DNA from: a virus
DNA length: 64,000 nt
Reading direction: 5' to 3' (one strand)
Virus record (IMG/VR): IMGVR_UViG_3300037107_000081
Coordinates: 1-64,000 of that record
Shown here: one piece after another, positions 23,464 to 60,952 of the stretch
How the letters are laid out: every line of letters begins with the position of its first letter
Numbering within the stretch: the stretch's first letter is position 1
The notes under the pieces: model-generated
Databases searched by the model: none
What the model was told of the DNA's origin: nothing
What the model saw: the letters and a program-made list of their open reading frames with translations, nothing else
Position numbers and translations under genes: made by a program

Positions 23464-23970
23464 ATGGATGATAAGTTTGCAGTTGATTTTGATAACCTAA
23501 CCCAAAAATTACTACCCAAGCGCGCTTATCGTTTGTCAGATGTAGCCGATCGTGTTGAAAAGGTTGGTTTTGATTTGGTTCGTTTCCGAGATAATGAGGA
23601 TACAGAACAATTATGGCAGGTACAAAAGAATCCTGATGGTGATGAAGTAATTGTTGCTCTTTACAATGATAACGGTGAAGAAATAAAGGCTGAGTCAAGC
23701 ATCAAGAAGAATTGGGAAGCAATACCTGACAAGAAGGCAGTTCATGTTTTTTACAAAGGTGAGGCATTGCTTTCATTGTCTAGTCAGGATCTTGGGGTTC
23801 CTGCCGACGAGTTTAATATTGTTCGCAGATGGTTGCCAAGAAAGCTTGAGACTGACCAAAACTTCCAGAGAATATTACTCAGCAAGGTAGCTAATGATGG
23901 TCGAAAGCTAATTGCTCAGAGATTTCCAGAACTCACAAAGGTTGCCAATATTTCAACTGAGACGGTATAA
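23464..23970 (+). CDS. hypothetical head-module protein
   Basis: GGAG RBS before ATG 23464; C-terminal LTKVA. Confidence 0.7.
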   Translation: MDDKFAVDFDNLTQKLLPKRAYRLSDVADRVEKVGFDLVRFRDNEDTEQLWQVQKNPDGDEVIVALYNDNGEEIKAESSIKKNWEAIPDKKAVHVFYKGEALLSLSSQDLGVPADEFNIVRRWLPRKLETDQNFQRILLSKVANDGRKLIAQRFPELTKVANISTETV

Positions 23971-23979
23971 CGAGGAATT

Positions 23980-25515
23980 ATGTTGAATTTACAAGAACTT
24001 TCATCTTTAATAAAAAAAGCCGCAGATACAATTGAGGCTAATGAAAAATTTCCCGTTGCTATTTTGGCAGCAAAAGCAAGGCGAGAGGCAAGTGCAAGGC
24101 CAACAGATACTCATCTAATAAATGCGTCGCAGGTTCTTACTAAAATAGCATCTTCTGACAAAATGTTTATTAGTAAGAGTGAACTTGCTAATATAGTCGA
24201 ACGTTTTGGAGCAACCCACTCTAAGCTATCTTCGGTTTTTTCTGAGGAACTTGGCAAGCGTGCAGAACCAAAGCCGCAGACGTTCGCTCGAGAAGCTAAT
24301 GAGGGCATTTCTCTGGACCGTGACTATCAAAGATTTTCGGATCCGGTTCTAGCTAATGCATTGAGTGGTGCTTTTGATGCCAAGCCTGTTGAGAAGATTT
24401 ATTCGCCGGCTGATGCACAGAGAGCTCATCGTGCGGCTTATGCTCAATTGCTTAGTATTGGTGTTGTTCCTAAGGAAGTTGTTACATTCGCTGGTCGTAA
24501 GGATATAATTATCTGCCAGGCTAATTACGAAACACAAATGGGTCAAGCTAATGTATTGATTCCGGTTGAGTTGATTGAGGGTAGAGCCGTTCTTCCATCA
24601 ATGTTTTTTAGTCTAAATGGTTTTGAAGATTTGGAAAAGACCGCTTATCTAGACCACATTAAGGCAGTGGTAGGTAAAGGGTTTAGAGTTGATGGTTCTA
24701 AGCTTCTTGATGTTCTTGAGCAGGTGAAGCGTGGCAGTTCAACTCTGTGCAATGATGTAGAATTGGCTGCAATAAAGGTAGCCTCAGAGCAAAACTCGCC
24801 GGCCATGCTAGATCAAAACGGTATTTATTATACAGAAGTTCTTGATACAAAGGCTGATGTTGAGCTTCCAAAGATGGCCGAGACTAAGGAGAGTAAGTTT
24901 GCCGAGACACTAAGCTCTGCAAACGGAATTGCTAACTTCATTCATAGTGATCGTGTTGTAGAAGCAGGCCGGTCCATGCTCAGTAGGAAATTTGCTGAGA
25001 TTGGTTACAAGAGTGTTCAGATTAAGGTAGCCGAAGTTGAGAAGGATAAGATTTTTTATGCTGTGGCTATTGGAACTGGTACTGGATTTAAGGTTCCGAT
25101 TGAAGTAACTGGAACAAACGTATTCCCTCCAAAGATTATATTTGCTGATGGCATTGTTACAGCTTTTAGTAAGGAAGCAATAACAGAGGCAGTTAAGGCT
25201 GGTATTGGGGGTAACAAACAAGCATTATCGATTGCTAGTAACTGTTCTGGAATGAAACCAACTGAACTTCTTGATATTGTAAAGAAGGCTGTTCATGATG
25301 GTAATTATGCTAGGGCCGAAGATGCAATAAATGTTTTAGGTGAGATCGATCCAAGCGCACAGAAGGTTGCTATTGCGCACATGATGTTGAATATTTCTGA
25401 GTCTGGTAAAGATCCTAGTGGTGATATTTCCGAGATGCAGAAATTAGCAAACAAGCCAGTACAAGACACTCCGATGTTTATGAGTTATAAGATTTTCTTT
25501 CCGGAAGGAGCTTAA
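23980..25515 (+). CDS. hypothetical head-module protein
   Basis: GAGGA RBS; LIKKA, LTKIA, AIKVA motifs. Confidence 0.75.
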   Translation: MLNLQELSSLIKKAADTIEANEKFPVAILAAKARREASARPTDTHLINASQVLTKIASSDKMFISKSELANIVERFGATHSKLSSVFSEELGKRAEPKPQTFAREANEGISLDRDYQRFSDPVLANALSGAFDAKPVEKIYSPADAQRAHRAAYAQLLSIGVVPKEVVTFAGRKDIIICQANYETQMGQANVLIPVELIEGRAVLPSMFFSLNGFEDLEKTAYLDHIKAVVGKGFRVDGSKLLDVLEQVKRGSSTLCNDVELAAIKVASEQNSPAMLDQNGIYYTEVLDTKADVELPKMAETKESKFAETLSSANGIANFIHSDRVVEAGRSMLSRKFAEIGYKSVQIKVAEVEKDKIFYAVAIGTGTGFKVPIEVTGTNVFPPKIIFADGIVTAFSKEAITEAVKAGIGGNKQALSIASNCSGMKPTELLDIVKKAVHDGNYARAEDAINVLGEIDPSAQKVAIAHMMLNISESGKDPSGDISEMQKLANKPVQDTPMFMSYKIFFPEGA

Positions 25516-25517
25516 TC

Positions 25518-28500
25518 ATGCCAGTTTCAATGGACCTAAGACTTCTAGCCAAAAAGCTGGAAAAAAGCAGTGATGATGTTTTGGTCAATGCTTCCTTAAA
25601 AAGCCCTAAGGAATTCGAAAGAGTTTCAATGGCCGTTGCTGCTGCATCTACTTTGCTAGAAGAAGTTGCAAATGACATGGATAATCAAGCTTCTTTTAGT
25701 ATTACAGAACAACAGCTCGATGAATTGGCCGCTCTCGCAAGTTCGTTTGATGAGAGCAATGATCCACTATTGAGAAAACAAGCTTCTGTTATTGATGAGT
25801 TATTACTTAGCATTGCGGCTCCAAAAAATGCCATTGCTGCTGCTAATAAAGCTACTGCCGACGAGATTAAGAGATTGCGTGAACAGCATAGCAAGGGTCG
25901 TCGTGAAGAAGCTTATGATGCGCCAAGGGAAGCTCTGCACAAGATGGAAAATGCAGCTGGCCAAGCCAAAGCAGTTGAGCAGCAGGTAAAGCGATTTGTG
26001 CCTATGGAAGCTCCTTTGCAAACTCGTTATCCCCCGGATCGTCCTGGTGGGCAGATGACTCGCATTACTGACCATGTTTATCAGGATATAGTTACTGGAA
26101 TTATCTATGACTATAAAGCCGGATACAAGACTCAGAAGGGCAATGAGGTTCCTGGTGGATCTGTTGAGAATCAAACTCGTGAACTGGGTGATTCTCGTAA
26201 CCAAGGCACATCTATGTTTGAGAGTCGTCAGTCTTTGATGGGGCGCTATGCCGAGGACAATTCTGATCTAAAAAAAAATTCAGCAATAGATAAAATTGCA
26301 ATAGCGCTGAAATCTATTCGTGATTTTGCGCCTAAATTATTAAATGCTGCTATTGATAATGCTCGGGATGATGGTCTTTCAACATCTCAGATTGCCGATA
26401 TTCTTGCTTCAGATATTTCCAGCAAAAGGGGATTAGAAGCCATAGCTCAATATGAAGGAGACGATGAATATCAAGTAAACCCTTTAGCCGATGAACTTGA
26501 TGACATTTCTGAAGAGGAGAGGGATTATCAAGGGGCTAGGAGATTATTTAAAGCAATTTCAGATTCAGGTTGGAAAAATAGTCCAGCTTTAATTGCTCAT
26601 CATATCGCAGCGTTATCAGAACACGGTGCATCTCCATTGACAATAGACTTGCTTCAAAGAGAATTTTTATTTGGAGAATCATTAGATGAACCAAATGATG
26701 ATGGTCCAATAACTGTACGACCACATGCTGAAATAGAAAGCGCACCAACTGTATTCTCACCATTAAGTGCTTCATCAAAACAAAGCTTAATGGCTCTTGC
26801 ATTGAGTGCGATCCAAGAATTAGCACCGCATCTTCTAAAATCGGCTGTTGCAAAATCAAAAGAATTATTAACTGATCAACAAATAAAATCAGTTTTATCA
26901 TCTAATTTTGTTAACAAGTTCGATAAACAAGCTGATGAAATAAAGATTGCTGAATCTCTGTTCCCGCATTTAAAAGATTTGGGCTGGAATGATTTAATAG
27001 AACAGCACACAAAAGTAATGTCGGCTCTAGGAATCAGCCAAGATAAAATACAAAAACTCTCTGGTAAAAAAACTAATAGAATTAATGTATTATCAAATAT
27101 TTTAAAATCAGCTGGTGTAAGAGAGATTGAATTTACAGATGAGCTGCCAGATTTAGAATTAGATAAAGAACCAGAGTTTGTTAATGTATTAGATCCAAAT
27201 GCTGAGGAAGAAGAGGTTCCTACTGAGCTACCAAGAGATACTATTCCATCTCCACCTCCAGCAAATAAACCAACATTACCGCCATGGAATCCAAAGGTAA
27301 AAGAGCATGTGTTGACAGAAAGGGATAAAGAAAGGCAAGTTAAACCATTTACAGAAAAGCACAATGATATATTAAAGGGTGTTGTTAGTTCTTTATCTTT
27401 ACCTTGGGGTGAATATATAAGCAAGCACCCAGAAACAAAACTAAGCTCTGAAAAAGTTAGACAATTAGAAACAGAAATTGGAAATCTTGTTCAGGCAGCT
27501 AAGACAGGAAGAGGTAATGATACTCCTGGTTTTGAAAAAATATTTGGAAGCTTTAAGTTCAAGGGCGAAACAATGCCTGTTGCTGTAGATAAACTTCCTA
27601 AAGATGTTAAAGATGCCATGAAAGATATGTTTATGGCAAAGGAAACTACTGAATCTGTTGCTAAATATCTTATGAAGCTTATTAGGGCTGGCGCAGATTT
27701 TGAGATTATTCCGCTCAAAGAATTGCAAAAGGCTCGTGTAGCAATGCTTGGGCCGCAAAATAAAAGACAAGCTGAAGAATTAAGACAGAAAGTTTTTGGT
27801 GGAATTTTAAGAAAAGCAACTAATTATATCCTGGCTGGTAAAAATCTTCCTGCGATGTTTGATTCTCAAGAAGGCGATAACGAAATTACAGCGCTTAAGT
27901 TTACAAAAATGCTTGAGGATATTGTGGGTGAAGTAACTACAACTAGAAGGAAGAAGGGGTTGGTTGCTGAGTTGCCAGAGGATAAGATTTCTTTATTTAG
28001 TGATCCTCAAGAATATATACAGATGTTTAGGGAAGCTCAAGAAAAGTTTCCAACAATATCTCAAAAATCAATGGCTGATAAACTTCACAATGCAGAAATG
28101 AGAAAGCAGCAGAGCCAATATATGGAAGAGAAGGGGTATATTTCTCCGGATGAAAAATTAATTGGTGGTGCTAGTGCTCGTTTCATGTTGCCCTGGCAGT
28201 TGGAGGGTGATTATGGTGGAGAGTGGACCGAAGATTTCCAGGGTATGAAGAATCTTTTCGAAAACCCAAAGGAATATGAGCATAAATATATTGAGGCCAA
28301 ACACAAGTTTCCATATAAGAGACAAGAAGTTCCCAAGGAAGTTTATCAGATTAGGGCTGCAGAACCAGAAAATGTAGCAAATATTCCGAGAGAAATTAAG
28401 GATAAGATATTTAATTTGATGAATTCAGGAATAACAAATGATGAGCTTATTGAAACCATGAAACAGGATAATGTTAGTCCAGAAACCGTTACAAAATACA

Positions 28501-28874
28501 AAGACTTCCTAAAGAACAGTGGTGGCGGAATTCGTGGATTGGTTAGTAGAATGGCTAATGCTAAGAATGGTCCAGTAGATATATCAAAAGTAAAAGCTAT
28601 GATTAAGAAGAGATGGCCTAATGCTGATGCTTCTGATGATATTATAGATCATTTGTATTCTATTGAGTTGGCTAATGCTAAAGATAAGGAAAAGAAAGAT
28701 TCTGAAATTGATAGGTGGATGGCTGAGCAGGGTTTCTTCCCGCCCAATCAACCGGCTACAATTGGTGGTAGGTCATTCGCTAAAATCCTAAGTGGAAATG
28801 GGTTTTTCAATCCTCTTGGAGCTGATCCGATTAATGCTCGCAAAAAGGAAGACATTAAACATGGGCGAGCGTAA
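25518..28874 (+). CDS. large putative internal head protein (1118 aa)
   Basis: Helical-hairpin tag, several KxA motifs, A9 run at 26270, acidic/Pro-rich linkers. Confidence 0.7.
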   Translation: MPVSMDLRLLAKKLEKSSDDVLVNASLKSPKEFERVSMAVAAASTLLEEVANDMDNQASFSITEQQLDELAALASSFDESNDPLLRKQASVIDELLLSIAAPKNAIAAANKATADEIKRLREQHSKGRREEAYDAPREALHKMENAAGQAKAVEQQVKRFVPMEAPLQTRYPPDRPGGQMTRITDHVYQDIVTGIIYDYKAGYKTQKGNEVPGGSVENQTRELGDSRNQGTSMFESRQSLMGRYAEDNSDLKKNSAIDKIAIALKSIRDFAPKLLNAAIDNARDDGLSTSQIADILASDISSKRGLEAIAQYEGDDEYQVNPLADELDDISEEERDYQGARRLFKAISDSGWKNSPALIAHHIAALSEHGASPLTIDLLQREFLFGESLDEPNDDGPITVRPHAEIESAPTVFSPLSASSKQSLMALALSAIQELAPHLLKSAVAKSKELLTDQQIKSVLSSNFVNKFDKQADEIKIAESLFPHLKDLGWNDLIEQHTKVMSALGISQDKIQKLSGKKTNRINVLSNILKSAGVREIEFTDELPDLELDKEPEFVNVLDPNAEEEEVPTELPRDTIPSPPPANKPTLPPWNPKVKEHVLTERDKERQVKPFTEKHNDILKGVVSSLSLPWGEYISKHPETKLSSEKVRQLETEIGNLVQAAKTGRGNDTPGFEKIFGSFKFKGETMPVAVDKLPKDVKDAMKDMFMAKETTESVAKYLMKLIRAGADFEIIPLKELQKARVAMLGPQNKRQAEELRQKVFGGILRKATNYILAGKNLPAMFDSQEGDNEITALKFTKMLEDIVGEVTTTRRKKGLVAELPEDKISLFSDPQEYIQMFREAQEKFPTISQKSMADKLHNAEMRKQQSQYMEEKGYISPDEKLIGGASARFMLPWQLEGDYGGEWTEDFQGMKNLFENPKEYEHKYIEAKHKFPYKRQEVPKEVYQIRAAEPENVANIPREIKDKIFNLMNSGITNDELIETMKQDNVSPETVTKYKDFLKNSGGGIRGLVSRMANAKNGPVDISKVKAMIKKRWPNADASDDIIDHLYSIELANAKDKEKKDSEIDRWMAEQGFFPPNQPATIGGRSFAKILSGNGFFNPLGADPINARKKEDIKHGRA
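27059..27089 (+). repeat. bipartite dispersed motif, copy 9 (intragenic)
   Basis: ctctggtaaaaaaactaatagaattaatgta; offset 25. Confidence 0.6.
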
Positions 28875-28882
28875 GGAATGAA

Positions 28883-29680
28883 ATGCCAGCTGATTTTACA
28901 AAGATTATTGATCATCCCGAGAAGCAAAATATAATCTCGAAGCTTGTTAGCGGTGAGAATTCTAAAGTTGTATCTAATTACCTAAAAGATAAATATTCAA
29001 AAGCCGATGAAGCACACCTAAGAATTCCGGCAACAACTCTACAGGAATTTTTGGATACGTATGCCGATCATCATGGGTTTGTAAAAAAGATAATTCAGAG
29101 GGATGCTGATAGTAAAATAGATAGGAAGATTGCAGAATCACTAATGGATACGCGTGCTTGGAGGGAGCGTGTTCAAGATGGTGTTGATAAGCAATTAAAT
29201 TATATAGAGAAGCTTGATCATTTAACAACTATTATGGAGGCTCGCGCTGAACAATTATTTGATTTGATTCAGAGTGATCCGGAAAATAGTAAAGTTGACT
29301 ATATTTTTACTAAGTACGCAGAAATATTAATGCAGATAATTGAAAAGGCTGACAAAATTCGTAATGATAAACCAGATGTGCGTGTTGAGCATACCTATAC
29401 TTTACAGATGGTAGAACAGCAATCATTTGCATTTCAGGAAACAATTCGTGAGTTTCTTCCGCGTCTTGGTCCAGATCAGGTTTCTATATTTTTTGATTTG
29501 TTAAATGAGAATCTATCCAAGATGAAGCCTAAAGAAATAGGGCCAGCTCCAGTTACAACAAGAGATATTGAAAAAGAAAGACAATCACTGGATAAGTTGG
29601 ATGCTAATGTTCAGGAATTTGATCAGAAATTTTTAGAAGAATATAAAGATGAAGAGGAGGATGAAGATGAGTCTGAATAA
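28883..29680 (+). CDS. hypothetical helical protein, candidate terminase small subunit
   Basis: HTH-like N-terminus (KIIDHPEKQNIISKLVSGENSKVVSNYL) followed by coiled coil; function is a weak inference. Confidence 0.35.
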   Translation: MPADFTKIIDHPEKQNIISKLVSGENSKVVSNYLKDKYSKADEAHLRIPATTLQEFLDTYADHHGFVKKIIQRDADSKIDRKIAESLMDTRAWRERVQDGVDKQLNYIEKLDHLTTIMEARAEQLFDLIQSDPENSKVDYIFTKYAEILMQIIEKADKIRNDKPDVRVEHTYTLQMVEQQSFAFQETIREFLPRLGPDQVSIFFDLLNENLSKMKPKEIGPAPVTTRDIEKERQSLDKLDANVQEFDQKFLEEYKDEEEDEDESE

Positions 29681-31610
29681 ACATTTTCAAAATCAGCTAG
29701 ATTCTTCTAATTGTGAATTTTTACCAGAGGATATAAAAAATAATGTACTCTCTGATTTTCACACAATGTCACAGCTTGATATAGATAACAATGCTGATCA
29801 GAACCAATTCTTTATGGTGAGAAATCATGTGCAAGAGATTGTTAATTTAGTATTCAATAGAAAATTAAATGACAACACATCTAGGGCAATTGCTGCGGAA
29901 GTTTTCAGGAATAGGGAAAATGCACCTATTGGAACGCTTTTGGAGTTAATACAAGCCACTGAACTCGCATTAAAGAAGATGATACCTGATTACATTAGAC
30001 CCAAGATTGCCTATCCTCAACCAATGGCAATTGAGGAGCGTCCTGAATATGATATTGGTCGTTGGGTAATGGCTACACGAGAGATATATAATTTGATGAA
30101 TAAAGGATATTCTCAAGATCAGGCTGAAAAAAATATAACTGGCAATTGGGAAGTAAGGGAAAAAATGGATTATGAACAATGGTTAAAATTCTATAAGGAC
30201 AAAACTCCGGAGAAATATCCCAAACTCGCAGCAGAAGATCATGGCGAAAATTTATTCTTGGCCAATCTTCCTCTTGGTGTTGGGGCTTTGCGTGCTCGTA
30301 CCAATAACAGCGGAAAGTTCCCTAATCCTATCTCAAGCGATCAATATAATTCAAAGGTGTCTCCTGGGTTGACGCAGAATTTACCAGAATCAGATGTAGC
30401 TTCTGCTCGTGATAAAATTGAAGGCCAGCGCAAGAAGCTTATTAGTCGTTTGAATTCTGCTGAAAAAATGTTGGCTTCGCTTGATGGTCAATTATTTGCT
30501 GGAGATGATCAAGAATTAATGTTGAAACTTCTTCAGGATTTGAAACGAAGAATTCAAATAGCCAATAAACTTACGGCAAAATCATCATTGTTTGAAGATT
30601 ATATTTATCGTACAGCAAATTTCTTGAAGGTTAAAGGTAAGGATGATGCTGCTAATTTCTTTTATAAGATAGCACAATTTGGTGAAGGGCCTGCTGATGG
30701 AGGGCTTGATCTTGGTGAGTCTGAGGTTCCTGGAGAAGAAGCTGCACCACAAGCAGTATCAGACGATGGTAATAAACAAGAGACTTATGAATGTTTGAAG
30801 GAGTTTTTCGCCAACTTGAAAGAGGGAATTGATGATGAAAATTCTCCTGAAGAAAAAAAGCCTGAGGAGTTAAAGCCAAATCCAACTGCTTTAAATATTC
30901 CACCACCAGCTGTTCCTGCACCTCCTGCCAAAGCCACAGCATCAATTGAAGATAATATCAAGCTTGGTATGGGTTACTGGCACAAGAATGCACAGATGGC
31001 TCCAGCAGCACCAGCGCCAAAACAATTACGCACAGCACCACCCAAGCGTCCTAATAATGAACTTGAGGCTGTAGAGGGTGTTGTGCCGGAAGATAATACC
31101 GAAGATGTAATTGATGCGGCTCTCAAGAATGTTTCAATTAATGATGTTATTAGCCGATTGGAAATGCTTGTTTCAATTTATAATAAGAGAGAAATTGCTC
31201 GTCAGTTAGCCATTCTTGATATTATGATGGATCGCATTGGTTTATCTTCATTCTTCCCAGCTTTAGGTGAGGCAATGAGTAAGGCTCTTGAATCTAATCA
31301 GTACATTGGAAGTCGTCTTGAAGGTGTGTTGACTAAGCTAAAAGGATCTCTTGAGGTTGCTGGTGCCTCTGAATGGATGGAAGTAAAGCAACAGAACAAT
31401 CCAGAGACAGCAAATATTAGGCGCAATCTTCAAGAAAAAGAAGATGAAGAGAAAAGGCGCAAGGAAATGAGGAAGCAACAAGATATAGCAAAGATGGAGG
31501 GTGGTGCAGCGGGTCCTGATGTGGGTCCGGCAGCAGTTCCAGTTGGAGAATCGGTTGATTTGCAGAGACCAGCTAAAGTCGAAAGGGCACCAAGAATAGA
31601 TGTGCGCTAA
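29667..31610 (+). CDS. putative internal head protein
   Basis: GGAGGA before ATG 29667; PKIA, YPKLA, FYKIAQ, WHKNAQ motifs and the hairpin tag. Confidence 0.7.
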   Translation: MSLNKHFQNQLDSSNCEFLPEDIKNNVLSDFHTMSQLDIDNNADQNQFFMVRNHVQEIVNLVFNRKLNDNTSRAIAAEVFRNRENAPIGTLLELIQATELALKKMIPDYIRPKIAYPQPMAIEERPEYDIGRWVMATREIYNLMNKGYSQDQAEKNITGNWEVREKMDYEQWLKFYKDKTPEKYPKLAAEDHGENLFLANLPLGVGALRARTNNSGKFPNPISSDQYNSKVSPGLTQNLPESDVASARDKIEGQRKKLISRLNSAEKMLASLDGQLFAGDDQELMLKLLQDLKRRIQIANKLTAKSSLFEDYIYRTANFLKVKGKDDAANFFYKIAQFGEGPADGGLDLGESEVPGEEAAPQAVSDDGNKQETYECLKEFFANLKEGIDDENSPEEKKPEELKPNPTALNIPPPAVPAPPAKATASIEDNIKLGMGYWHKNAQMAPAAPAPKQLRTAPPKRPNNELEAVEGVVPEDNTEDVIDAALKNVSINDVISRLEMLVSIYNKREIARQLAILDIMMDRIGLSSFFPALGEAMSKALESNQYIGSRLEGVLTKLKGSLEVAGASEWMEVKQQNNPETANIRRNLQEKEDEEKRRKEMRKQQDIAKMEGGAAGPDVGPAAVPVGESVDLQRPAKVERAPRIDVR

Positions 31611-31619
31611 GAGGATAAA

Positions 31620-33095: not shown

Positions 33096-33144
33096 AATTG
33101 CTCCTAAAAATAGGTAGTTGTTAAGTTTGTGTTATATAAGTAAT

Positions 33145-33405: not shown

Positions 33406-33440
33406 TTTATTGTATCCATCTAAAATAATACTTTCCATAA

Positions 33441-33510
33441 ATCACCACCTATATCAACCAAATTTCTATATATCACCACCTATATCAACCAAATTTCTAT
33501 ATATCAACCA
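33441..33510. repeat. 31-bp perfect tandem duplication plus partial copy
   Basis: atcaccacctatatcaaccaaatttctatat at 33441-33471 and 33472-33502, then atcaacca. Confidence 0.9.
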
Positions 33511-51568: not shown

Positions 51569-51575
51569 AATTATT

Positions 51576-52355: not shown

Positions 52356-52418
52356 TAATAATGCATATCTTAGTATACTATTAGGCCTAAACCCAGCTGT
52401 ATTATATAAGGTGTTGTA

Positions 52419-52742
52419 ATGAACGATGAAGTTTGGAAGGATTTTTTCGCAGATAACCAGACTAAAAGAGTTTTGGATAGCTCAGAGGTGTGGAGGAATT
52501 ATTCTCAGGCTGAGCTAGTACGTGAGCAGCTTAGAGAGGTTAATGCTGCAAACAAAACAATTGATAACGAAAATCAGTTGATGGCTACTTTGGATGAGTT
52601 TCGCCAGAAGATTGCTGAAAACCCTGCTCTCAAGGCAGAATTAAAAAAAGCATCTGATATTTTGGAACAACATCCTGAATTAAAAGAAAAGGTAGACCAA
52701 AATTTTATAAATGGTTTAGAGTTGCTTGACCTTGGGGACTAA
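52419..52742 (+). CDS. hypothetical protein
   Basis: AAGG RBS; SSEVWR motif shared with 52745 (SSEVYR). Confidence 0.65.
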   Translation: MNDEVWKDFFADNQTKRVLDSSEVWRNYSQAELVREQLREVNAANKTIDNENQLMATLDEFRQKIAENPALKAELKKASDILEQHPELKEKVDQNFINGLELLDLGD

Positions 52743-52744
52743 TT

Positions 52745-54415
52745 ATGATTTTTGCAAAATATACAGATAACATATATTCGTCTGAAGTTTATCGTGAACT
52801 TGAGCGTCAGGCTGTTAAGAAAGGTTTTTTCAAGCCAACCGAAACTGAATTAGTAAAGTTAGCGGCGGATGAAGTTAATAAGGTTGAAAAAATTAATCAA
52901 GAAGTAGATGTAACTCCTTCTAACGATTTTATTCAGGATGTGGCTTGTTTGGCCTATGCAATGAGGCGCAAGGGATTTGTTACGTTGGCAGAAGATCTTG
53001 AAGAGAAGTTGGTTATTTATAAGAAGGCCGAGAATGAGCTTTATAATGTTAATATGGAAAAGACGAAAGATTTTATTGATTTCGCTCACAGAGATGGTGA
53101 TGTCAATCTTATCGATGGGTCAGGTGAGTTGGGAACTATAGAAACACAACAGGGAATGGCTGATAAGATTTTAGCTGTTGTTAATAAGAATCCTACGGGA
53201 AAGTATCCAACTAATAAAATTGCTGAGTTTGCTGCTGAAATTATGAAGAAAGCACAAGAACAAAACGCTTCTGAGATGCCGGCTGAAAACCAAAGTACTT
53301 ATCAACCTGATTCGTCTGCTCCAAAAAATATAAAAGAATCATTAACAAGGGCCGCAGTTGTTTTGAACGATGTTGAGAGTGTTAAAAATAATCAACCAAT
53401 ACCTGTTAGTTCTTTTTCATTTAATGATCAAATAGAAAAAAAAAATGAAGTTCAGAACGCTTATATATATTTTGCTCGTTTAGCTGGCGTAAATGTAAAT
53501 CAAAGAAATATTCAGGCGTGGTTTATATTAAAGGGAACGGCGGGTGATAAAGGAGTTTTAACTGATGGTGACGTTCCGGTTATTAGTGCGGCCAATCTTC
53601 AATCAGCATATAAAAACGCATATTCATCAAGTTTTACCCCTTCTGCTGCTAATGGTATCTTGCAAAGTATAGCCGCTGCACTTGGTGTTGGTCCTACTTT
53701 TGCTTCTAAATATATTAATGAAACTAGTAAATATGATCTTTTTGCTGGTGGCTTAAATATGGCTCCAAATTGGGATAATGTTAACGCTGCTTGTAAAGAG
53801 TTGGCAGATCAAGCAAGTAAATTATATATAAGTGTTTGGGGCGTAAATAATGATACTATAACCAAAGCAACAGCGATATTACAAAGTATGCCAGATAATT
53901 TATATAAAAAGATTAATACTATTGATACAAAACAAAATTTTCAAAACAATGTAAACAAAGCTTTATCTGATCTAATTAATATTTCAAAAACCATCAGCTT
54001 AGCAAGAAATGATTTTACAAAACAACCGACTTATAATTATATGAAAGCGATTGTTAATGATATAGATCAAATAGTTACATGGGCTGATGGAATTGTAAAA
54101 CACATTTCTGATAGTTATAAGACTGTGGCAACTCCAGAACAACGAAAACCATTTGATATTGATACTCGTGAATTAGATAAAGCATACAATTATTGGTTAA
54201 TTCAAGCGCAAAGTGAAGATGAGGCAACTAAAAATAAAGCCACACATATCGCTGATAGAATACAACAATTAAAAGGAATTTTAGATCAGGGACAGGGTAA
54301 GATTTGGCTTGAAGTAAAGGACGATCTTGAGGCGAATGGTATTAGTGCTCCAACTAAAGAAGCTCTTCAAAATAGCATAAATACAATTGCCAACTCTGCA
54401 AAAGGTGGGAGATAA
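52745..54415 (+). CDS. putative internal/ejection protein
   Basis: Hairpin tag, AH-module, LVKLAA, IYKKAE, IMKKAQ. Confidence 0.65.
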   Translation: MIFAKYTDNIYSSEVYRELERQAVKKGFFKPTETELVKLAADEVNKVEKINQEVDVTPSNDFIQDVACLAYAMRRKGFVTLAEDLEEKLVIYKKAENELYNVNMEKTKDFIDFAHRDGDVNLIDGSGELGTIETQQGMADKILAVVNKNPTGKYPTNKIAEFAAEIMKKAQEQNASEMPAENQSTYQPDSSAPKNIKESLTRAAVVLNDVESVKNNQPIPVSSFSFNDQIEKKNEVQNAYIYFARLAGVNVNQRNIQAWFILKGTAGDKGVLTDGDVPVISAANLQSAYKNAYSSSFTPSAANGILQSIAAALGVGPTFASKYINETSKYDLFAGGLNMAPNWDNVNAACKELADQASKLYISVWGVNNDTITKATAILQSMPDNLYKKINTIDTKQNFQNNVNKALSDLINISKTISLARNDFTKQPTYNYMKAIVNDIDQIVTWADGIVKHISDSYKTVATPEQRKPFDIDTRELDKAYNYWLIQAQSEDEATKNKATHIADRIQQLKGILDQGQGKIWLEVKDDLEANGISAPTKEALQNSINTIANSAKGGR

Positions 54416-54416
54416 A

Positions 54417-56147
54417 ATGATATCTAAGATTGCTGGACAAGACGCTGCAGCATGGGTCGGATTGACTGGTGGAAAAGGCCCAACTACTGCCCCATCTCAT
54501 TCTGGTGGTGCAGGTCGTGGTGGTGCAGCTGCTCAACCAACAACCGAAAATAAACCTGTATCTGATGCTGTTCGTACAATGCAGGGTCTTATGGGAGACT
54601 TGCGAAATCAATTACAAGATACAAACAAAGCACAAACAGCTCTTGCTCAAATAAATGCAAAAGGACAAAGCGGAATTAAAGATGTTGCAGAATTGGCTGC
54701 CGCCGCTCAAGCATTTGGAACAACTTCGGCAGGTGCAAGATCTTCAACAGATGGTGTCTGGGGCCCGCAAACTAGAAATTCTTTAATAAATATAAAGAAT
54801 TTTGTTGAAAAAGCAAACATTCCAGGAACAATTATTCAAGAAGGAACTGGACCAAGCCCATATAAAGCAACGAAAGAGGACGACCTTCTTCAACTAGCTA
54901 ATGCAAATATTAATAACTTAGTGCGCTTATTTCAAACAGTTGGGCTTTCTTCAACGGTAGCGACACAAAAGGGTAGTTTTATTCAGGTAGATTCGGTTGG
55001 TCCAGAATTAGATCCTTCGGGTTTTTCTGATGATCCATGGCCAACAACATGGGGAAAAAACCCAGTCATGTCTACCGATATACATGATTTCTACAAATTC
55101 TTTAACTTTATACAGAATCTACATTTGGTTGGTGAGTTGTGTAAACCATTAGATGAGCGTGGTAAAGAAGAAACTAATAATCGTAATGATAGAAACAGAA
55201 GAGCTGATGATCAATTGTCTGCTATTGAGAAGTTGGCAAAAGAAATATTAGAATCAACAATTATTAGATTGGGTCAAGAAGGACAACAGGTTGGTGAGTT
55301 TGATCGTGCAAAGGGTCAACCAGCTGTAGAAACAACACCAACGCCAGAACCAAAAGCTCAAGATGATAAGTGGCATTGTTTTTATTCTATAGACGAAATT
55401 ATAGATTGGTTTGTTAGAAGGGCTAATGCTATTTTTGCTCAGCTATATCCGTTATATCGTTCATCAGGAGAAAATCCAAGACCAGATAAGAAAGGCACAG
55501 TTGTTACAGAAAATGATATGCAGCTTGCTAATGATTATAAAAAGAGCATGGATACAATTCGTGCTCAATGGTATGGAATTAGAAACGATGTAATAAATGC
55601 GCTAAAAGAACAGGATAAGCAAGATCATCCTGTTGTTACTCTTGGTACTATTATTGGTGTTGCAAGTGGTAATGCTGGTGGATCTGGTGGTGCTGGTCGT
55701 GGTGAAAGAGCTAGTGGTACTGGTGGTAGTGGTTACACTTTAAGTGGTGAAGAAGAGCAGGCTAAAAAAGCACCTATAGCAGATTTTATGAAACTTAGGG
55801 TTCTAGCAAGAGGTTTGCGCACTAAGGCCGTTGATGAGCTTGAAGTATTAAGTGATGATGGACTTCCAAACGTAGATTTAAATGATTGGTTAAATGGTAA
55901 TTGGCAAAATCTAGCTGAAGACGTTAAGGGAGATACACCAGCTCAAAAACTTAATGGTTTTAGAAATTGGGCATTAGCAGTTAAAAACGTTATAACAGAT
56001 ATATTTCGTAACTGGAATAACCGAGATCAAGATCATGATGATTCAGTTACCAAACAACAAACACATCTATGGCAGCGATGGTTAGATGCTATTGATAGTC
56101 AAATTGGTACTGCTGGTAGAATGTTACAAAGAACAACGGGAAGATAA
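54417..56147 (+). CDS. putative ejection protein with peptidoglycan-binding-like motif
   Basis: GGGAG RBS; MISKIAG; VRTMQ...TDGVWGPQTRNSL (PG_binding_1-like DGxxGxxT). Confidence 0.6.
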   Translation: MISKIAGQDAAAWVGLTGGKGPTTAPSHSGGAGRGGAAAQPTTENKPVSDAVRTMQGLMGDLRNQLQDTNKAQTALAQINAKGQSGIKDVAELAAAAQAFGTTSAGARSSTDGVWGPQTRNSLINIKNFVEKANIPGTIIQEGTGPSPYKATKEDDLLQLANANINNLVRLFQTVGLSSTVATQKGSFIQVDSVGPELDPSGFSDDPWPTTWGKNPVMSTDIHDFYKFFNFIQNLHLVGELCKPLDERGKEETNNRNDRNRRADDQLSAIEKLAKEILESTIIRLGQEGQQVGEFDRAKGQPAVETTPTPEPKAQDDKWHCFYSIDEIIDWFVRRANAIFAQLYPLYRSSGENPRPDKKGTVVTENDMQLANDYKKSMDTIRAQWYGIRNDVINALKEQDKQDHPVVTLGTIIGVASGNAGGSGGAGRGERASGTGGSGYTLSGEEEQAKKAPIADFMKLRVLARGLRTKAVDELEVLSDDGLPNVDLNDWLNGNWQNLAEDVKGDTPAQKLNGFRNWALAVKNVITDIFRNWNNRDQDHDDSVTKQQTHLWQRWLDAIDSQIGTAGRMLQRTTGR

Positions 56148-57238
56148 TGGCTGGTGAGATCCAATATGTTTCCGATACTATATTACTTGAAAAAACATTT
56201 CGGGTTCTCTCGGAATTTAATGATGGCAATATAAATAAATATGCCTTTGATATGGGTTCGCTTTTGAGTGGTATTGGTGAAAACATACATTCATTCATTG
56301 GTAGCCAAATTCATGATAAAGCTTCAGGTGGAATTACCAGAACGATTATAGATTTACTTGCCCCAGCTGTATTTTTTGGGCTTAATCCTGTTCTTGGTTT
56401 TGTAGTTGCTTTTGCTCAGGAAGCTTTTGGTTTTGATATGTATTCTGTGTATCAAAAGATTCATGATGCCATTATACCTGATGTTGAAGCTGAAAAACCA
56501 ATAAGTGCTGATAAAATAAATAATATTGCAAAATCAGCAATTCCAAATACAGACGAAGAAGAAACAGATGAACAACATGCAGATGATCTTTTATATCCAT
56601 TGAGGGCTTTAGAAGAAAATGGACAATTAACAAAAGAAGCGTTGGGTCGTCGTTCTTTCTACAGTTCAAAAGATACAAGATTTAAGCCCTTGCAATCACT
56701 GCTTGAAGTTATTGGTAAAAGAAAGGGAATGTCTTTTATTACCGGAATTATAGCTTGGTTTTTGAAGACTATATTATTATCTGCTGGTTTGTTAATTGTT
56801 GGTGGTGTTGCTGCAAAAGCTCTTGGTTTTGGGGTTAAACAACAAAACACTACGACTACACAACCTGAACAAACAAACACACAACAGCCGCAACAAAACA
56901 CACAACAACCAACACAAATGTCTATTCCGGCTCCTTCTGGTGCTGGTGCTTACGTATATAAAAATAAACCTAATGATATATGGGTTGAGAATTTAAATGG
57001 AAGACAGCCTTATGAAATGATTTTACAATGGGCTCTTGGGTCATATCCTAGCCTTTACCAATATGACAACATTATATTGAATACTCCGTCTTTTTGGAAT
57101 GCAGTTCGTAGCGTTACCGAAAATTGGAGACCTGGACAATCTGATATAGCAATCCCAGATCCATACAAAAAACGGGATGATGTTGTAAGTCTGTTCATAA
57201 ATGACGTTTTTAGAAATATTAATCAAGGGAGTGCATAA
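56147..57238 (+). CDS. putative membrane-inserting virion protein
   Basis: INKYAF, LTKEAL; two hydrophobic segments; Q/T-rich linker. Confidence 0.65.
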   Translation: MAGEIQYVSDTILLEKTFRVLSEFNDGNINKYAFDMGSLLSGIGENIHSFIGSQIHDKASGGITRTIIDLLAPAVFFGLNPVLGFVVAFAQEAFGFDMYSVYQKIHDAIIPDVEAEKPISADKINNIAKSAIPNTDEEETDEQHADDLLYPLRALEENGQLTKEALGRRSFYSSKDTRFKPLQSLLEVIGKRKGMSFITGIIAWFLKTILLSAGLLIVGGVAAKALGFGVKQQNTTTTQPEQTNTQQPQQNTQQPTQMSIPAPSGAGAYVYKNKPNDIWVENLNGRQPYEMILQWALGSYPSLYQYDNIILNTPSFWNAVRSVTENWRPGQSDIAIPDPYKKRDDVVSLFINDVFRNINQGSA

Positions 57239-58473
57239 TGAATCAAGATATTTGGGATGAATTTGAAAAAATAGCAGTTGCACAAGGATTAATTGCATTG
57301 TCCGAAGATGATTATTCTAAACCGTTGCCTAAGCGTTATGATTCGTTGTCTGATGATGCGATCCGTTTGCTTTATAACATTGAACCGGAACCAGAAAAAG
57401 ACAAGACTATTATAGAAGTAGCACACCCAGAAACCTTTACTGTTGGTACTGCTTATGATGCCATGAACTCGGTTGTTGAAAATGAACACCAACACCAAGA
57501 TATGATGGCCTATATTGCGTTGAAAGTTCCAAACGGCCACCTCACACAAAGACGTTATGTTGCTGCAAAACAAGAACTGTTAAACTCATTAATACGATCA
57601 GCTTTCACTCTCGATAATAAAGATGAAGAAGGCCTGATGGTTCTTGCTGATTCTTGCGCAAAAAGATTGGATGAACGAAGTGAACAAATTACTAAAGAGG
57701 GTATTGCCCCTTTAGCAGTTGCCGGGGTTGCTAGTGCTGCTGCATTACTCGGCATTGCTTACTATTTTATATGGGGAGCTCCAACAGCACAAAATGTATA
57801 CACCAATGCACAAAGGGTTTTAGATGCTCTTGAACCATTATCAGATCAACCATACGCAGATCCTATCAAAAAAGATATGACCACTGTAATGAGTATGGCC
57901 GAACAACTGCATGCAATGAGAACACAACTTGCAACCGTTCATTCTGTTGATGATGTCGTTAATGCCGCACAACAAGCTTCTGAAAATGCAAAAATAGAAG
58001 AGGCAAAAACCAAGAGAGATGCTTACGTTGCTCAGTTAAGGAAAATTTATGCAGCTCTTCCGGAATGGGTTAGAGCAATTAGGTCGGCTCACGTAAATCA
58101 AACAAGCACCAATGATTTCTTCGCTAAACTACAGGAAATTGGCAGCATCTTTACAGAGGGCGGTGCTGATGAAAAATTGGTCCATGAATTAATTGGTAAG
58201 TCTGATTGGTTCGCAAAGATAAAACAATACATTCCGGGTACACAAGATCATTATGCACCAGGCCAAGACAATTCAAAAGAAGCTGTGCATGGCGGCCTAA
58301 AAGAAGCAATCGAAAATGAAATATCGGTTATGAAACAATCTTTTAATAAAGCCCAAGAACAAGTACCAGAAATTCAAAACTCATTGGATATCGCCGCACA
58401 AAAAACCAAACCATCTACCCCAGACGATGCAAAAAATATGTTGGTCAAAGATACAGTCGATAATTTTACATAA
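57238..58473 (+). CDS. putative membrane-inserting virion protein
   Basis: AHP-module and hairpin tag; ITKEG immediately followed by IAPLAVAGVASAAALLGIAYYFIWG. Confidence 0.65.
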   Translation: MNQDIWDEFEKIAVAQGLIALSEDDYSKPLPKRYDSLSDDAIRLLYNIEPEPEKDKTIIEVAHPETFTVGTAYDAMNSVVENEHQHQDMMAYIALKVPNGHLTQRRYVAAKQELLNSLIRSAFTLDNKDEEGLMVLADSCAKRLDERSEQITKEGIAPLAVAGVASAAALLGIAYYFIWGAPTAQNVYTNAQRVLDALEPLSDQPYADPIKKDMTTVMSMAEQLHAMRTQLATVHSVDDVVNAAQQASENAKIEEAKTKRDAYVAQLRKIYAALPEWVRAIRSAHVNQTSTNDFFAKLQEIGSIFTEGGADEKLVHELIGKSDWFAKIKQYIPGTQDHYAPGQDNSKEAVHGGLKEAIENEISVMKQSFNKAQEQVPEIQNSLDIAAQKTKPSTPDDAKNMLVKDTVDNFT

Positions 58474-58477
58474 TCTC

Positions 58478-58510
58478 CTCTGGTAAAAATAATAATAATC
58501 AATGAATGTA
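58478..58510 (+). repeat. bipartite dispersed motif, copy 13
   Basis: ctctggtaaaaataataataatcaatgaatgta; offset 27. Confidence 0.85.
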
Positions 58511-59005
58511 CCAAATGAAATAATAGCCTGGAAAAAGTACCTAACTACTAAGGCGCTTTATTCAGGACCTATTAATAAAGATAATAACCTTGAATTCAAA
58601 TCAGCTATCAAAAACCTAGAATCACTCTTAACCAAACATTCCCCATCTATAAAAGGTATGATCTGGAAAAATAATACCGTAAATAAAAATGTTTCTATCG
58701 TCGATGTAAATAATGCCCTAAACCTATTGTCTAAATTCGCCCAAGCCGATCTAGATGCTTTAGGTCCCCCAGATGCAGATCAACGAGGTACCATAATTAA
58801 TCAAATGTTTTTAAGCCAGGATATGAAAAATTCAGACAATTGGAGCGAATCAAATAACCAAAATCAAGGCCGCGAAGGCTCAACTATCCCAAAAAATCTA
58901 AATCCCTCTGGTAAAAAAATAACTCAAGAAATACCGCAAAAACACCAAAATATTGACGATAGAATGAAGGCACTAACTGATTTATTAGAAAATGTGAAAA
59001 AATAA
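58502..59005 (+). CDS. hypothetical protein, degenerate peptidoglycan-binding-like N-terminus
   Basis: IIAWKKYL...LYSGPIN.....FKSAIKNLE; LSKFAQ. Confidence 0.5.
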   Translation: MNVPNEIIAWKKYLTTKALYSGPINKDNNLEFKSAIKNLESLLTKHSPSIKGMIWKNNTVNKNVSIVDVNNALNLLSKFAQADLDALGPPDADQRGTIINQMFLSQDMKNSDNWSESNNQNQGREGSTIPKNLNPSGKKITQEIPQKHQNIDDRMKALTDLLENVKK

Positions 59006-59135
59006 TTTAATAAACTACTACTACTAATGTATTTAATTTGTAAGGTGTCTTGATTACCTAAATATCAAGGGAAAGTAAGACCAAGATGTAAGACAATAAA
59101 AGCACTAAATAAATAAGTGCAATAGGATATAATAT

Positions 59136-59843
59136 ATGGCATTAGAACTTGTACAGCCTGGCATTCAACCGCTAGGTCAATTTGATGGCGCGGATGCTAT
59201 CTATCTAACTGTAAAAGGTGGAGAAGTTGCAACAATCAAAGCCGCAGTAGCTACCTCCGCTACCGACGAAGCCGCAGCAGATGTTTTCAATGATGGCTAT
59301 GTGCTTGCTTCCGGCGTAAAACAACGTCCAGTCGCAACAACCGTCCTCGCAAACGGTAACCGTCCCCTTATGTTGGTGGATGACGGTATCTTTGGTTACG
59401 GAACTTTGTTTGGTTCAGTGATCGGTGGAATTGCTGGTCAGATTGCTTACGGCGTCAACCAGGCATCTGCTACTCAACTAGGCCCACACACTGCAGCAGG
59501 ATCGGGTAAGCTTACTCTGTGGGATAAGTCAGGTACATATGCTGTGACATTGGATGCGGTTCATACAGACGTGACTGCTGGTTTGGTTCCTACTAACCCA
59601 ACATTGACGATTGGTGCTGCTCTTTATGCAACAACTAAAGGCCTCTTAACTCCAACTAGCGGAAATGCCTTCGAAGCAATTCGTCTTGGCTCTTTCCTTA
59701 ACTTCGAAGCTTATAAGGGCGGAAGCTTGGTTACGACTCCGGTCAGCCTTGTCTCTGCTTCTAAGAGCCCAGTTGGCGTTGGTCAGCCTCAGACTAGTGC
59801 AATGGCCCGTGCGTTGATTTACTTCGCTCCTCCAACCACATAA
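59136..59843 (+). CDS. head decoration/cement protein
   Basis: Immediately upstream of the MCP; Gly/Ala/Thr-rich; HTAAGSGKLTLW, LYATTKGLLT. Confidence 0.7.
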   Translation: MALELVQPGIQPLGQFDGADAIYLTVKGGEVATIKAAVATSATDEAAADVFNDGYVLASGVKQRPVATTVLANGNRPLMLVDDGIFGYGTLFGSVIGGIAGQIAYGVNQASATQLGPHTAAGSGKLTLWDKSGTYAVTLDAVHTDVTAGLVPTNPTLTIGAALYATTKGLLTPTSGNAFEAIRLGSFLNFEAYKGGSLVTTPVSLVSASKSPVGVGQPQTSAMARALIYFAPPTT

Positions 59844-59846
59844 TCG

Positions 59847-59888
59847 TGAATATAGATTCTGGAGATGCTTTCGTGTCTCCAGATTCAC
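59847..59888 (+). other. intergenic stem-loop before the MCP
   Basis: tctggagat/gtctccaga stem closed by gtgaat/attcac. Confidence 0.65.
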
Positions 59889-59941
59889 TAGCTGTTGATG
59901 GATTTTGGCAGCTTATAAACAGTAAACCTTAGGAGATATTT

Positions 59942-60952
59942 ATGTCTTTATTTGATACCCATGGTGGTATGAATGCTTCGTCTGTAAGAGACGCATTGAA
60001 TACGTTAGTTAAATACGCAGCGATCATAGAAGAAGGTCAGCCCTCGAATATGGCGCTATCAGGTCAACCAAGCCTGAATGATGAGAAACGAGATGAGCTT
60101 ATCGCCAGAGCAATTATGACCCAGGAAGGGAAGCTTGCTCTTGCTCAGGCTATGGCAAACCCAATTCGTAGAAACCTTGATTATCAGGGAATTGCACGTC
60201 GTCTGTTGGTCGTAGATCCACTTCCACAAGGAGTAGATCCGAAGTATGAGCGTGATATCGATGTCGCAGCTACCGTTATTTCCAGCAATGGTACCGGTGG
60301 TGAAAGCCGCGTGTTCGGTGATCGTATCGTAATTCCTACCTTCGAACTTTACTCGAACCCAACCGTTCGCATTTCAGAAGTTCGTCGTCGTAGATTCAAC
60401 GTGATTGATCGTGCGGTCCAGAAGGCACGTCAAGAAATAATGGCCCAGGAAGATGCCAACATTTTCGCAGCCATTGATGCAGCTTCAACTGTTGAGAATG
60501 CCGCTCAGGATATTACTGATGGTGGAATGCTTAAGAGAGACTTGGTCGATATTAAGGTCCAGATTGATCGTTGGGACCTGGTAACGACAAAGTATTTCAT
60601 GAATATCAATGAGTTTACTGATATTCTTAACTGGGCATCCGGCGGTGGCCAGGGCGCAGGTGGTGGAGAAATTGATCCAGTTACACAGCGCGAAATTCTC
60701 CAGACCGGTCTCTATGCTCACATTTGGGGCGCGGACATTATGGTGTCAAAGATTGTTCCACCAGGAACCGTTTATGGAGCGGCCGATCCAGAGTTTGTAG
60801 GTGTTTTGCCCATAAGACAAGACATCGAGGTAATTCCGGCCGATGAGCCGAAGCAACTCAAATTGGGTTGGGTTGTGAGTGAAGAAATCGGCATTGGTAT
60901 CGTGAATCCACGAGCCGTTGCTGTATCGCGCAAGTCAACGATTGTTCAATAA
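59942..60952 (+). CDS. major capsid protein (HK97 fold)
   Basis: AGGAG RBS; LAQAMANPIRRNLDYQGIARRLL, FELYSNPTV, AQEDANIF, GHIWG-like AHIWGADI, LGWVVSEEIGIGIVNPRAV; followed by a strong terminator. Confidence 0.9.
   Translation: MSLFDTHGGMNASSVRDALNTLVKYAAIIEEGQPSNMALSGQPSLNDEKRDELIARAIMTQEGKLALAQAMANPIRRNLDYQGIARRLLVVDPLPQGVDPKYERDIDVAATVISSNGTGGESRVFGDRIVIPTFELYSNPTVRISEVRRRRFNVIDRAVQKARQEIMAQEDANIFAAIDAASTVENAAQDITDGGMLKRDLVDIKVQIDRWDLVTTKYFMNINEFTDILNWASGGGQGAGGGEIDPVTQREILQTGLYAHIWGADIMVSKIVPPGTVYGAADPEFVGVLPIRQDIEVIPADEPKQLKLGWVVSEEIGIGIVNPRAVAVSRKSTIVQ

Follow-up and report, generated by a model that had tools for sequence, protein, structure and literature searches.

A hydrophobic-x-Lys-x-Ala motif in the head module of a phage-G-like megaphage as a candidate recognition signal of its assemblin-fold maturation protease

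Does a short peptide motif that recurs through the head genes of a megaphage carry information and, if so, what reads it? The question is raised by the first 64 kb of a 75-kb virus contig (IMG/VR record IMGVR_UViG_3300037107_000081), a stretch that we call the window; its GC content is ~36%, and essentially all of its genes lie on the + strand. Judged by its capsid gene and its relatives, the contig is taken to be a fragment of a phage-G-like megaphage, because its major capsid protein (MCP) is nearest to gp27 of Bacillus phage G, the closest GenBank relative by that protein, and because the IMG/VR relatives lie on contigs of up to 450 kb. These relatives number in the hundreds, with MCP identities of 77-93% for the 80 best. 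An earlier note on this DNA had pointed out a hydrophobic-x-[K/R]-x-[A/G] motif in many head proteins, and had proposed it as the cleavage code of a head maturation protease encoded from position 44912. Those of its examples that we looked up are present where it placed them, including MVEKRA-Q (34130), MLIKTG (44754), MIFKQG (49940), LTKTA-A (48329), ITKEG-I (57238), LSKFA-Q (58502) and, in the 44912 product, TTKEA, LKQG, LLKTA, VEKRA and ISKQA (the last hyphen in such peptides marks the bond after the motif). FYKIA-Q and WHKNA-Q lie in open reading frame (ORF) 29649, and MISKIA-G (54417) lies inside ORF 54387.

Is the motif more frequent than chance would make it? Two modules of the window were compared.

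23401..60952, + strand: head module, 36 ORFs, all on the + strand; [LIVMFY]-x-K-x-A over-represented 2.5-fold
1..22548, + strand: replication/other module, the internal control, without motif enrichment

Expected counts were taken from within-protein shuffles, and are thus composition-matched for each protein. The broad form [LIVMFY]-x-[KR]-x-[AG] occurs 106 times in genes 23401-60952, against 61.6 expected (z 5.9), and 40 times in genes 1-22548, against 36.4 (z 0.6). For the strict form [LIVMFY]-x-K-x-A, the counts are 59 against 23.6 (z 7.4) and 12 against 12.6. Hence, the excess that the earlier note anticipated is there, and is confined to the head module. Since the motif had been picked post hoc, we scanned all ~11,500 comparable patterns, namely those of one hydrophobic and two fixed residues within +/-5 positions. 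Hydrophobic-x-K-x-A ranked first, the runner-up having a z of 5.4; in 60 shuffled proteomes, the maximum z averaged 4.34 and never exceeded 5.05. The last 11 kb of the contig, which encode large fibre-like proteins, hold 7 sites in ~4,400 residues, with no obvious excess as judged without an expected count.

The enrichment is specific at each of the three fixed positions. At the middle position (P3), Lys is enriched 2.5-fold and Arg 1.9-fold (24 vs 12.7), while Glu, Asp, Gln, Asn and Ser stand at 0.5-0.9-fold. At the last position (P1), only Ala is enriched (2.5-fold); Gly is at 0.83-fold (13 vs 15.7) and Ser at 0.86-fold. At the first position (P5), Leu, Ile, Phe and Met are enriched 2-3.5-fold and Val 1.5-fold, and Tyr shows no excess (1 vs 2.3). 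These values refine the motif to [L/I/F/M>V]-x-[K>R]-x-A. Of the two residues first allowed in the last position, Ala therefore holds; Gly fails overall, and is conserved only at a few N-terminal sites. After the Ala (P1'), Gln, Phe, Glu and Ser are favoured, Gln most of all, and Pro and beta-branched residues are avoided.

The sites are also biased towards protein N-termini: 25 of 82 fall among residues 1-60 (p 0.004). Of the 36 head-module proteins, 23 have a site within residues 1-110, as compared with 8 of 36 control-module proteins. Six to seven head-module proteins, but one control protein, start with M-(x)-hydrophobic-x-K-x-A/G, in which the motif closes at residue 5-6; relatives keep these starts. 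The earlier note's figure of about 20 matured proteins, putatively internal to the head, has the right order of magnitude, given the 23 proteins with an early site and the ~15-17 with a site that is conserved in relatives.

Conservation gives a second view of the motif. For 27 head-module proteins, alignments were built with their homologues from 119 IMG/VR loci. The motif Lys is conserved at 0.73, against 0.43 for other Lys (p 9e-7), and the motif Ala at 0.81, against 0.49 for other Ala (p 2e-7). Among homologues less than 70% identical, conservation within similar-residue groups is 0.86 at P5, 0.79 at P3 and 0.85 at P1, as compared with 0.44-0.64 at P4, P2 and the flanks; identity at the intervening and flanking positions is 0.33-0.49. 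This i/i+2/i+4 footprint, with free residues in between, is that predicted for recognition as an extended strand. The motif is a real, selected and head-module-specific signal.

Which proteins carry it? Four products of the head module can be named, in the gene order portal (37825), protease polyprotein (44912) and MCP (59942), with the terminase gene before the portal gene.

59942..60952, + strand: MCP, 336 amino acids (aa); phrog_2522, E 1.5e-75; 54% identity to phage G gp27 from residue 45
37825..39735, + strand: portal protein, 636 aa; phrog_16240, E 8e-47, match from aa 121; 29% identity to phage G gp14 from aa 127
44912..48274, + strand: protease-scaffold polyprotein, 1120 aa; phrog_18299 head maturation protease, 2e-16, profile match at aa 116-215, domain at aa ~107-250
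35871..37739, + strand: large terminase, 622 aa; phrog_675, E 8e-56; a head-module gene whose product is outside the capsid interior

PHROGs put names in the head module to these four and to a nucleotidyltransferase-like protein only. Pfam gave no family for the protease (E<0.01; Peptidase_S77, S78 and S21 are thus not matched) or for nine other head proteins, a PDB sequence search with the protease gave no match, and neither did a megablast of 44000-50000 against GenBank phages. The large terminase has 0 strict sites (0.97 expected), and the protein immediately upstream of the MCP has 0 motif sites. The sites outside the polyprotein that were followed in homologues are as follows.

60005..60019, + strand: LVKYA-A, MCP residue 26, the sole MCP site; full motif in 97% of 60 homologues
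38119..38133, + strand: LYKMA-A, portal residue 103, the sole strict portal site; hydrophobic residue conserved 1.00, Lys 0.90, Ala 0.86
56231..56245, + strand: INKYA-F, residue 33 of the 363-aa protein 56147-57238; full motif in 93% of 46 homologues (median identity 25%)
56627..56641, + strand: LTKEA-L, residue 165 of the same protein; kept in 63%
57262..57276, + strand: FEKIA-V, residue 13 of 57238-58473; kept in 17 of 17 homologues
52850..53254, + strand: LVKLA-A (40), IYKKA-E (95) and IMKKA-Q (170) in 52745-54415; all three kept in 6 of 6 homologues
50440..50490, + strand: IAKIA-G (49) and VAKLA-Q (61) in 50308-50778; kept in 100% and 89% of 9 homologues, a long indel region following
39777..39791, + strand: MEKEA-Q, 5-residue N-terminal leader of 39777-40976; Lys 0.92, Ala 1.00 and Gln 1.00 in 13 homologues
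44120..44134, + strand: MEKKA-Y, N-terminal leader of 44120-44746; Ala 0.94 in 35 homologues, Lys and Arg alternating
41042..41056, + strand: LVKVA-G, residue 27 of 40976-42370; hydrophobic residue 1.00, Ala 1.00, Lys and Arg alternating in relatives
34133..34147, + strand: VEKRA-Q, N-terminal leader of 34130-34960; kept in 3 of 5 relatives
34661..34675, + strand: LIKEA-G, residue 182 of 34130-34960; kept in 5 of 5 relatives at 25-65% identity
30603..30674, + strand: IYRTA-N (323) and FYKIA-Q (342) in 29649-31610; kept in 4 of 5 and 5 of 5 relatives
23980..25515, + strand: 511-aa protein with the highest site density, 9 sites against 1.58 expected (p 4e-5)

Several of these sites mark boundaries. 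The MCP site lies in an N-terminal extension, phage G gp27 being without the first ~44 residues. The portal site directly precedes an indel-rich Gly/Ser linker and then the portal core (from aa 121), and its neighbours P4, P2 and P1' are conserved at only 0.38, 0.33 and 0.05. In the 56147-57238 family, K31 is invariant, the motif is the best-conserved N-terminal element, and indels start one residue past the Ala. In the 511-aa protein, LTKIA-S (residue 57, nt 24136-24150) reads K/R-x-A in four of five relatives, and the fifth has Ser at P1. A related-locus search anchored on 23980 found none; a direct search of the relatives' records did find homologues. Throughout the sub-module 23401-34960, comparison with the five relatives shows that some sites are kept and many others turn over at a maintained density, which fits degradative cleavage sites.

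The polyprotein 44912-48274 combines the candidate protease with many of the sites. Of its sites, 8 match the strict form; besides these, it carries Arg variants at 433 and 444 and a Gly variant at residue 6, all three of them conserved. Ten sites (residues 6, 38, 433, 444, 526, 597, 774, 784, 955 and 1079) are kept in at least 78% of 27 homologues.

44915..44929, + strand: LIKLG-E, N-terminal site, Gly variant (residue 6); kept in 27 of 27 homologues, with Gly in 25 and Ala in 2
45011..45025, + strand: MYRFA-Q (aa 38), Arg here and Lys in most relatives; kept in 89%
45026..45676, + strand: protease domain (aa 39-255), predicted T4 gp21/herpesvirus assemblin fold (AlphaFold2, Foldseek, VIA)
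45311..45313, + strand: His134 of the invariant D133-H134, candidate catalytic His; invariant in 22 sequences
45464..45466, + strand: Ser185 in VSMG, candidate catalytic Ser; invariant in 22 sequences
46196..46243, + strand: LQRLA-D and MFREA-A (aa 433, 444), Arg-type; kept as Arg in 81% and 78%
46475..46489, + strand: FEKVA-L (aa 526); kept in 85%
46688..46702, + strand: LLKTA-Q (aa 597); kept in 85%
47219..47263, + strand: VVKYA-T and VEKRA-H (aa 774, 784); kept in 85% and 93%
47762..47776, + strand: VRKQA-E (aa 955); kept in 78%
48134..48148, + strand: ISKQA-S (aa 1079); kept in 78%

AlphaFold2 modelled residues 1-330 with a core of high confidence, in which blocks reach a predicted local distance difference test (pLDDT) of ~90. 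Foldseek with this model placed 5JBL, T4 gp21, at the top (probability 0.98, E 4e-3), followed by herpes proteases. VIA likewise gave 5JBL a Z of 8.5 (root-mean-square deviation 3.2 Å over 134 aa) and herpes proteases a Z of 6-7.5, values that are moderate. On the model, then, the N-terminal domain of the 44912 product has the T4 gp21/herpesvirus protease fold, which supports the earlier note's assignment of this product as the protease; His134 and the Ser185 of VSMG, its candidate catalytic residues, are invariant. D133-H134 and S185 are also conserved in phage G gp19. An invariant acidic residue, for example D111, D148, D152 or E220, might form a pocket for the Lys. The conserved start of the protease fold, IAPK, comes exactly 6 residues after MYRFA-Q, and phage G gp19 has LVKTA-A at an equal offset. 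The fusion of protease to scaffold-like part is conserved in at least 27 relatives. Co-folding of protease aa 39-255 with the N-terminal 70 residues of 56147-57238 scored 0.01, and gave no usable answer.

Three further features of this locus are recorded here in their own right. First, a Cys cluster (C195, C198, C209, H211; Cys-x-x-Cys...(10)...Cys-x-His; 45494-45544) lies shortly after Ser185. Its three Cys are invariant in 22 relatives, phage G gp19 has the equivalent CSICG...FCDH, and the cluster looks like a zinc-binding insert in the protease fold. Second, a 52-aa ORF (44754-44912) directly upstream of the protease starts with MLIKTGDAEI, resembling the protease start MLIKLGESVC; its stop overlaps the protease start, and it is conserved in five relatives. 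Third, the protease ORF of five relatives (L091, L092, L104, L117 and L119) is 1350-1585 aa long, and is similar to the window protein only from residue 108.

Does the motif recur in independent lineages? In phage G, the head module gp4-gp28 has 25 sites against 9.6 expected (z 5.1), and the neighbouring gp29-gp64 have 10 against 6.7. Only portal, protease and MCP are homologous between the head modules of phage G and the window; hence, the motif arose independently in unrelated head proteins. It is enriched 1.6-4.0-fold in all 33 of 33 protease-anchored IMG/VR loci. In a 392-kb relative (~91% complete), the head module (345-392 kb) has 70 sites against 26.3 and the other 345 kb have 100 against 114.4; the four proteins that reach p<0.01 are all encoded in the head module. 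Among more distant phages of the same MCP family, the signals are weak and not conclusive: hydrophobic-x-R-x-A 14 vs 6.5 in Gordonia phage Stormageddon, the Lys form 8 vs 3.9 in Erwinia Yoloswag, and the Arg form 20 vs 12.1 with the Lys form 9 vs 5.6 in Rctr197k. The code may reach beyond the phage G clade, since Stormageddon head proteins show this weak Arg-form excess. In this distant actinophage (L122, 11079-14348), the gene of a similar, 1089-aa 'capsid maturation protease' adjoins the MCP gene.

What, then, reads the motif? Because the sites lie at domain boundaries, are conserved and are specific to the head module, beside an enzyme with the gp21 fold, we consider it probable that the head maturation protease recognizes its substrates by [L/I/F/M>V]-x-[K>R]-x-A. 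That cleavage would occur at the motif, by the 44912 enzyme and at the bond after the Ala is what we infer from sequence. The sites are placed like the prohead-protease sites of T4, phiKZ and SPN3US: near the start of the MCP, ahead of the portal core and of the protease fold, and in numbers in the scaffold-like part. The earlier note's register, with Lys at P3 and Ala at P1, is plausible; herpes proteases likewise take Ala at P1.

We propose the following course of events. The protease would be the N-terminal assemblin-fold domain (aa ~39-255, with His134/Ser185), and the scaffold-like remainder would carry it into the prohead. After shell assembly, the enzyme would bind the motif as an extended strand, fitting the selected, alternate side chains at P5, P3 and P1, and would cut at or beside the motif, most simply after the Ala. 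Cuts at residues 6 and 38, together with one at 255 or 433, would let the protease free itself, and the scaffold part would be chopped at about eight conserved sites. The MCP would lose approximately 26 residues and the portal ~103, and ~15-20 further head-module proteins would lose short leaders of 5-60 N-terminal residues.

Several observations sit less easily with cleavage after the Ala. The motif excess in the head module is ~35 sites, and hence ~40% of single matches should be due to chance. In 23980-25515, many sites turn over among the five relatives. The flanks prefer Leu at P8 and P3' and Ile/Leu at P6', which hints at amphipathic helices around some sites, and such helices are poorer substrates for proteases. 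With 5-6 residues, leaders such as MEKEA, MEKKA and MLIKLG are very short for propeptides. Furthermore, the register is ambiguous from sequence: a cut after the Lys would give hydrophobic-P3/Lys-P1, parallel to the T4 L/I-x-E.

How does the proposed code compare with known ones? Herpesvirus assemblin cleaves V/L/I-x-A before Ser, with Ala (small) at P1, hydrophobic at P3 and a strict Ser at P1'. The window enzyme shares with it the predicted fold, Ala as the likely P1 and the union of protease and scaffold in one polyprotein, with (here proposed) autoprocessing, but here P3 would be basic, P5 hydrophobic and P1' variable (Q, E, S and F preferred); the herpes-type [VLI]-x-A is not enriched in the head module (209 vs 209.1). 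T4 gp21 removes capsid-targeting leaders of 10-20 residues and cuts the scaffold, its substrates including the MCP (PMC7411985). Likeness to gp21 extends to the fold, to a short motif with selected residues two apart and to the many substrates, putative here. In contrast, the charged residue here is Lys/Arg rather than Glu, a third fixed residue is Ala, and the protease is fused to a scaffold-like tail of ~865 aa. The T4-type [LI]xE has no module-specific excess, with 153/128.8 (1.19x) in the head module and 101/80.4 (1.26x) in the control, in keeping with the earlier view that the specificity differs from Glu-ending motifs.

Giant phages provide the other comparison, although detailed knowledge of proteolytic head maturation is confined to a few phages. 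In SPN3US, nine proteins are cut by gp245 after A-x-E, at 14 or more sites in all (PMC10052503), and a 2026 review gives only the phiKZ motif S/A/G-x-E (PMC13282480). As with phiKZ gp175 and SPN3US gp245, we are dealing with a giant phage in which extensive processing is predicted, including that of portal, MCP and protease (PMC10052503, PMC13282480); unlike here, their motifs end in Glu, and there is no sequence relationship beyond the fold. In the window head module, [SAG]-x-E is not enriched (193 vs 190.0) and A-x-E has a mild excess (103 vs 79.4). The giant-phage head-protease motifs in these two papers are all Glu-ending, and the Lys/Ala code differs from them. Phage G is closest: gp19 has a protease domain 33% identical, the same His/Ser and the same Cys-x-x-Cys...Cys-x-His insert, and the motif is enriched in this phage, with 7 copies in gp19. 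Phage G sites include LVKTA-A (residue 45) and LEKVA-S (250) in gp19, MAKQA-A (20) in gp14, LSKVA-A (22) in gp9, ISKTA-A (9) in gp13 and LKKTA-L (12) in gp20. Nonetheless, gp19 is 300 aa long without a long scaffold tail, and phage G MCP lacks both the N-terminal extension and the site. The multi-omics study of phage G gives no cleavage motif (PMC12484599); Gonzalez et al. 2020 may already have described one.

An alternative explanation keeps the protease and the motif and moves the scissile bond to the Lys, giving hydrophobic(P3)-x-Lys(P1), then x(P1')-Ala(P2'), a charge-reversed T4 L/I-x-E. We regard this as unlikely. The hydrophobic-x-charged register is that of T4 gp21 (PMC7411985, PMC13282480), and gp21 is the best structural match. 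[LIVMF]-x-K alone is enriched in the head module (298 vs 243.7) and not in the control (183 vs 185.5). A cut after Lys also has a precedent in the HK97 capsid protein. Against this, the Ala two residues on is conserved as strongly as the Lys (0.80 vs 0.73), the conserved block stops at the Ala with indels from the next residue, and we know of no precedent for a strict P2' requirement in this protease family.

Might the motif instead be bound without being cut? As a docking or capsid-targeting motif, held as a strand by scaffold, shell or protease, it would bring cargo into the prohead. Any groove that binds a strand would suit the i/i+2/i+4 footprint, and several copies stand at extreme N-termini, where the loss of 5 residues seems pointless. 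However, ten conserved copies run along the scaffold-like polyprotein, proteins carry multiple copies, and sites flank the protease fold. Turnover at a kept density is typical of degradative sites, as in SPN3US gp53 (PMC10052503), and T4 targeting leaders are cut as well (PMC7411985). These observations make an uncleaved motif distinctly improbable.

It is very doubtful indeed that the motif is a functionless by-product of Ala/Lys-rich amphipathic helices, paralogous segments or a DNA motif. In its favour, Ala and Lys are more abundant in head-module proteins, and the residues around the motif show weak hydrophobic preferences with a heptad-like spacing; however, the expectations are composition-matched per protein, the motif residues are conserved while their neighbours are not, and the enrichment recurs in non-homologous phage G proteins. 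A helix artefact is essentially ruled out because a helix would enrich Glu or Gln as much as Lys, and Glu, Gln and Asp at P3 are not enriched. Paralogy was rejected by all-against-all BLAST of head-module proteins, which found no common segment with the motif. A DNA-level cause was rejected likewise: codons at the motif Lys and Ala are mixed, and 0 of 18 copies of CTGGTAAAA, which would read L-V-K in frame, underlie a site. This element, with 13 copies on the + strand and 5 on the - strand between 3308 and 58908 of the window, often lies near gene boundaries (7993, 20836, 33527, 37764, 58480). It has no relation to the peptide motif, and could act as a promoter or in regulation.

The least credible reading is a signal for another protease or unfoldase, such as a phage-encoded ClpXP or a host enzyme, even though N-terminal hydrophobic-hydrophobic-basic-hydrophobic starts (like MLIKLG) resemble a ClpX N-degron class. 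Phage G ClpP and ClpX have been detected in particle proteomics (PMC12484599), but the majority of sites are internal, the motif follows the head module in which the assemblin-type protease is encoded, copies of it border the fold of that very protease, and no Clp gene turned up in the window, where no systematic search for one was made.

Three other observations concern the same region. A second dispersed pattern, hydrophobic-x-D-x-I, occurs 39 times in 23401-60952 against 16.7 expected (z 5.4, slightly over the shuffled maximum of 5.05); examples are LQDNI, LYDAI, IVDDI, LLDEI and YVSDTI, D10 in the 56147 leader is nearly invariant, and the pattern may be part of a helical targeting element. 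A tRNA-nucleotidyltransferase-like protein is encoded inside the head module (31620-32360; phrog_2244, 9e-15). Its motif matches IKRLA (residue 15) and IHKLA (57) are probably due to chance, since their conservation in relatives is poor. Immediately behind the MCP gene, a single ORF (61132-63060) combines helix-turn-helix domains and a LAGLIDADG domain (PF14528) with a C-terminal part like a methyltransferase, all as weak Pfam hits, by which it looks like a homing-endonuclease-like mobile gene.

What would recognition of the motif by the head maturation protease mean for these phages? It is quite possible, though we would stop short of calling it probable, that phage G and hundreds of uncultivated related megaphages use a previously undescribed specificity of an assemblin-fold protease, with basic P3, Ala P1 and hydrophobic P5 rather than Glu P1. 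Processed, capsid-packaged (possibly ejected) proteins could then be read from sequence, and the 5-6-residue M-hydrophobic-x-K-x-A leaders would be combined targeting and cleavage tags. The proposal is directly testable, since phage G can be grown and its virions re-analysed, and is of interest to phage-assembly specialists. If true, the termini predicted for mature MCP and portal would be corrected, to the benefit of structural work. A second code would, if true, reveal how the T4/herpes protease fold varies its substrate pockets, and would allow capsid-internal and ejected proteins to be nominated from sequence in phage G and in its uncultivable environmental relatives of 300-450 kb.

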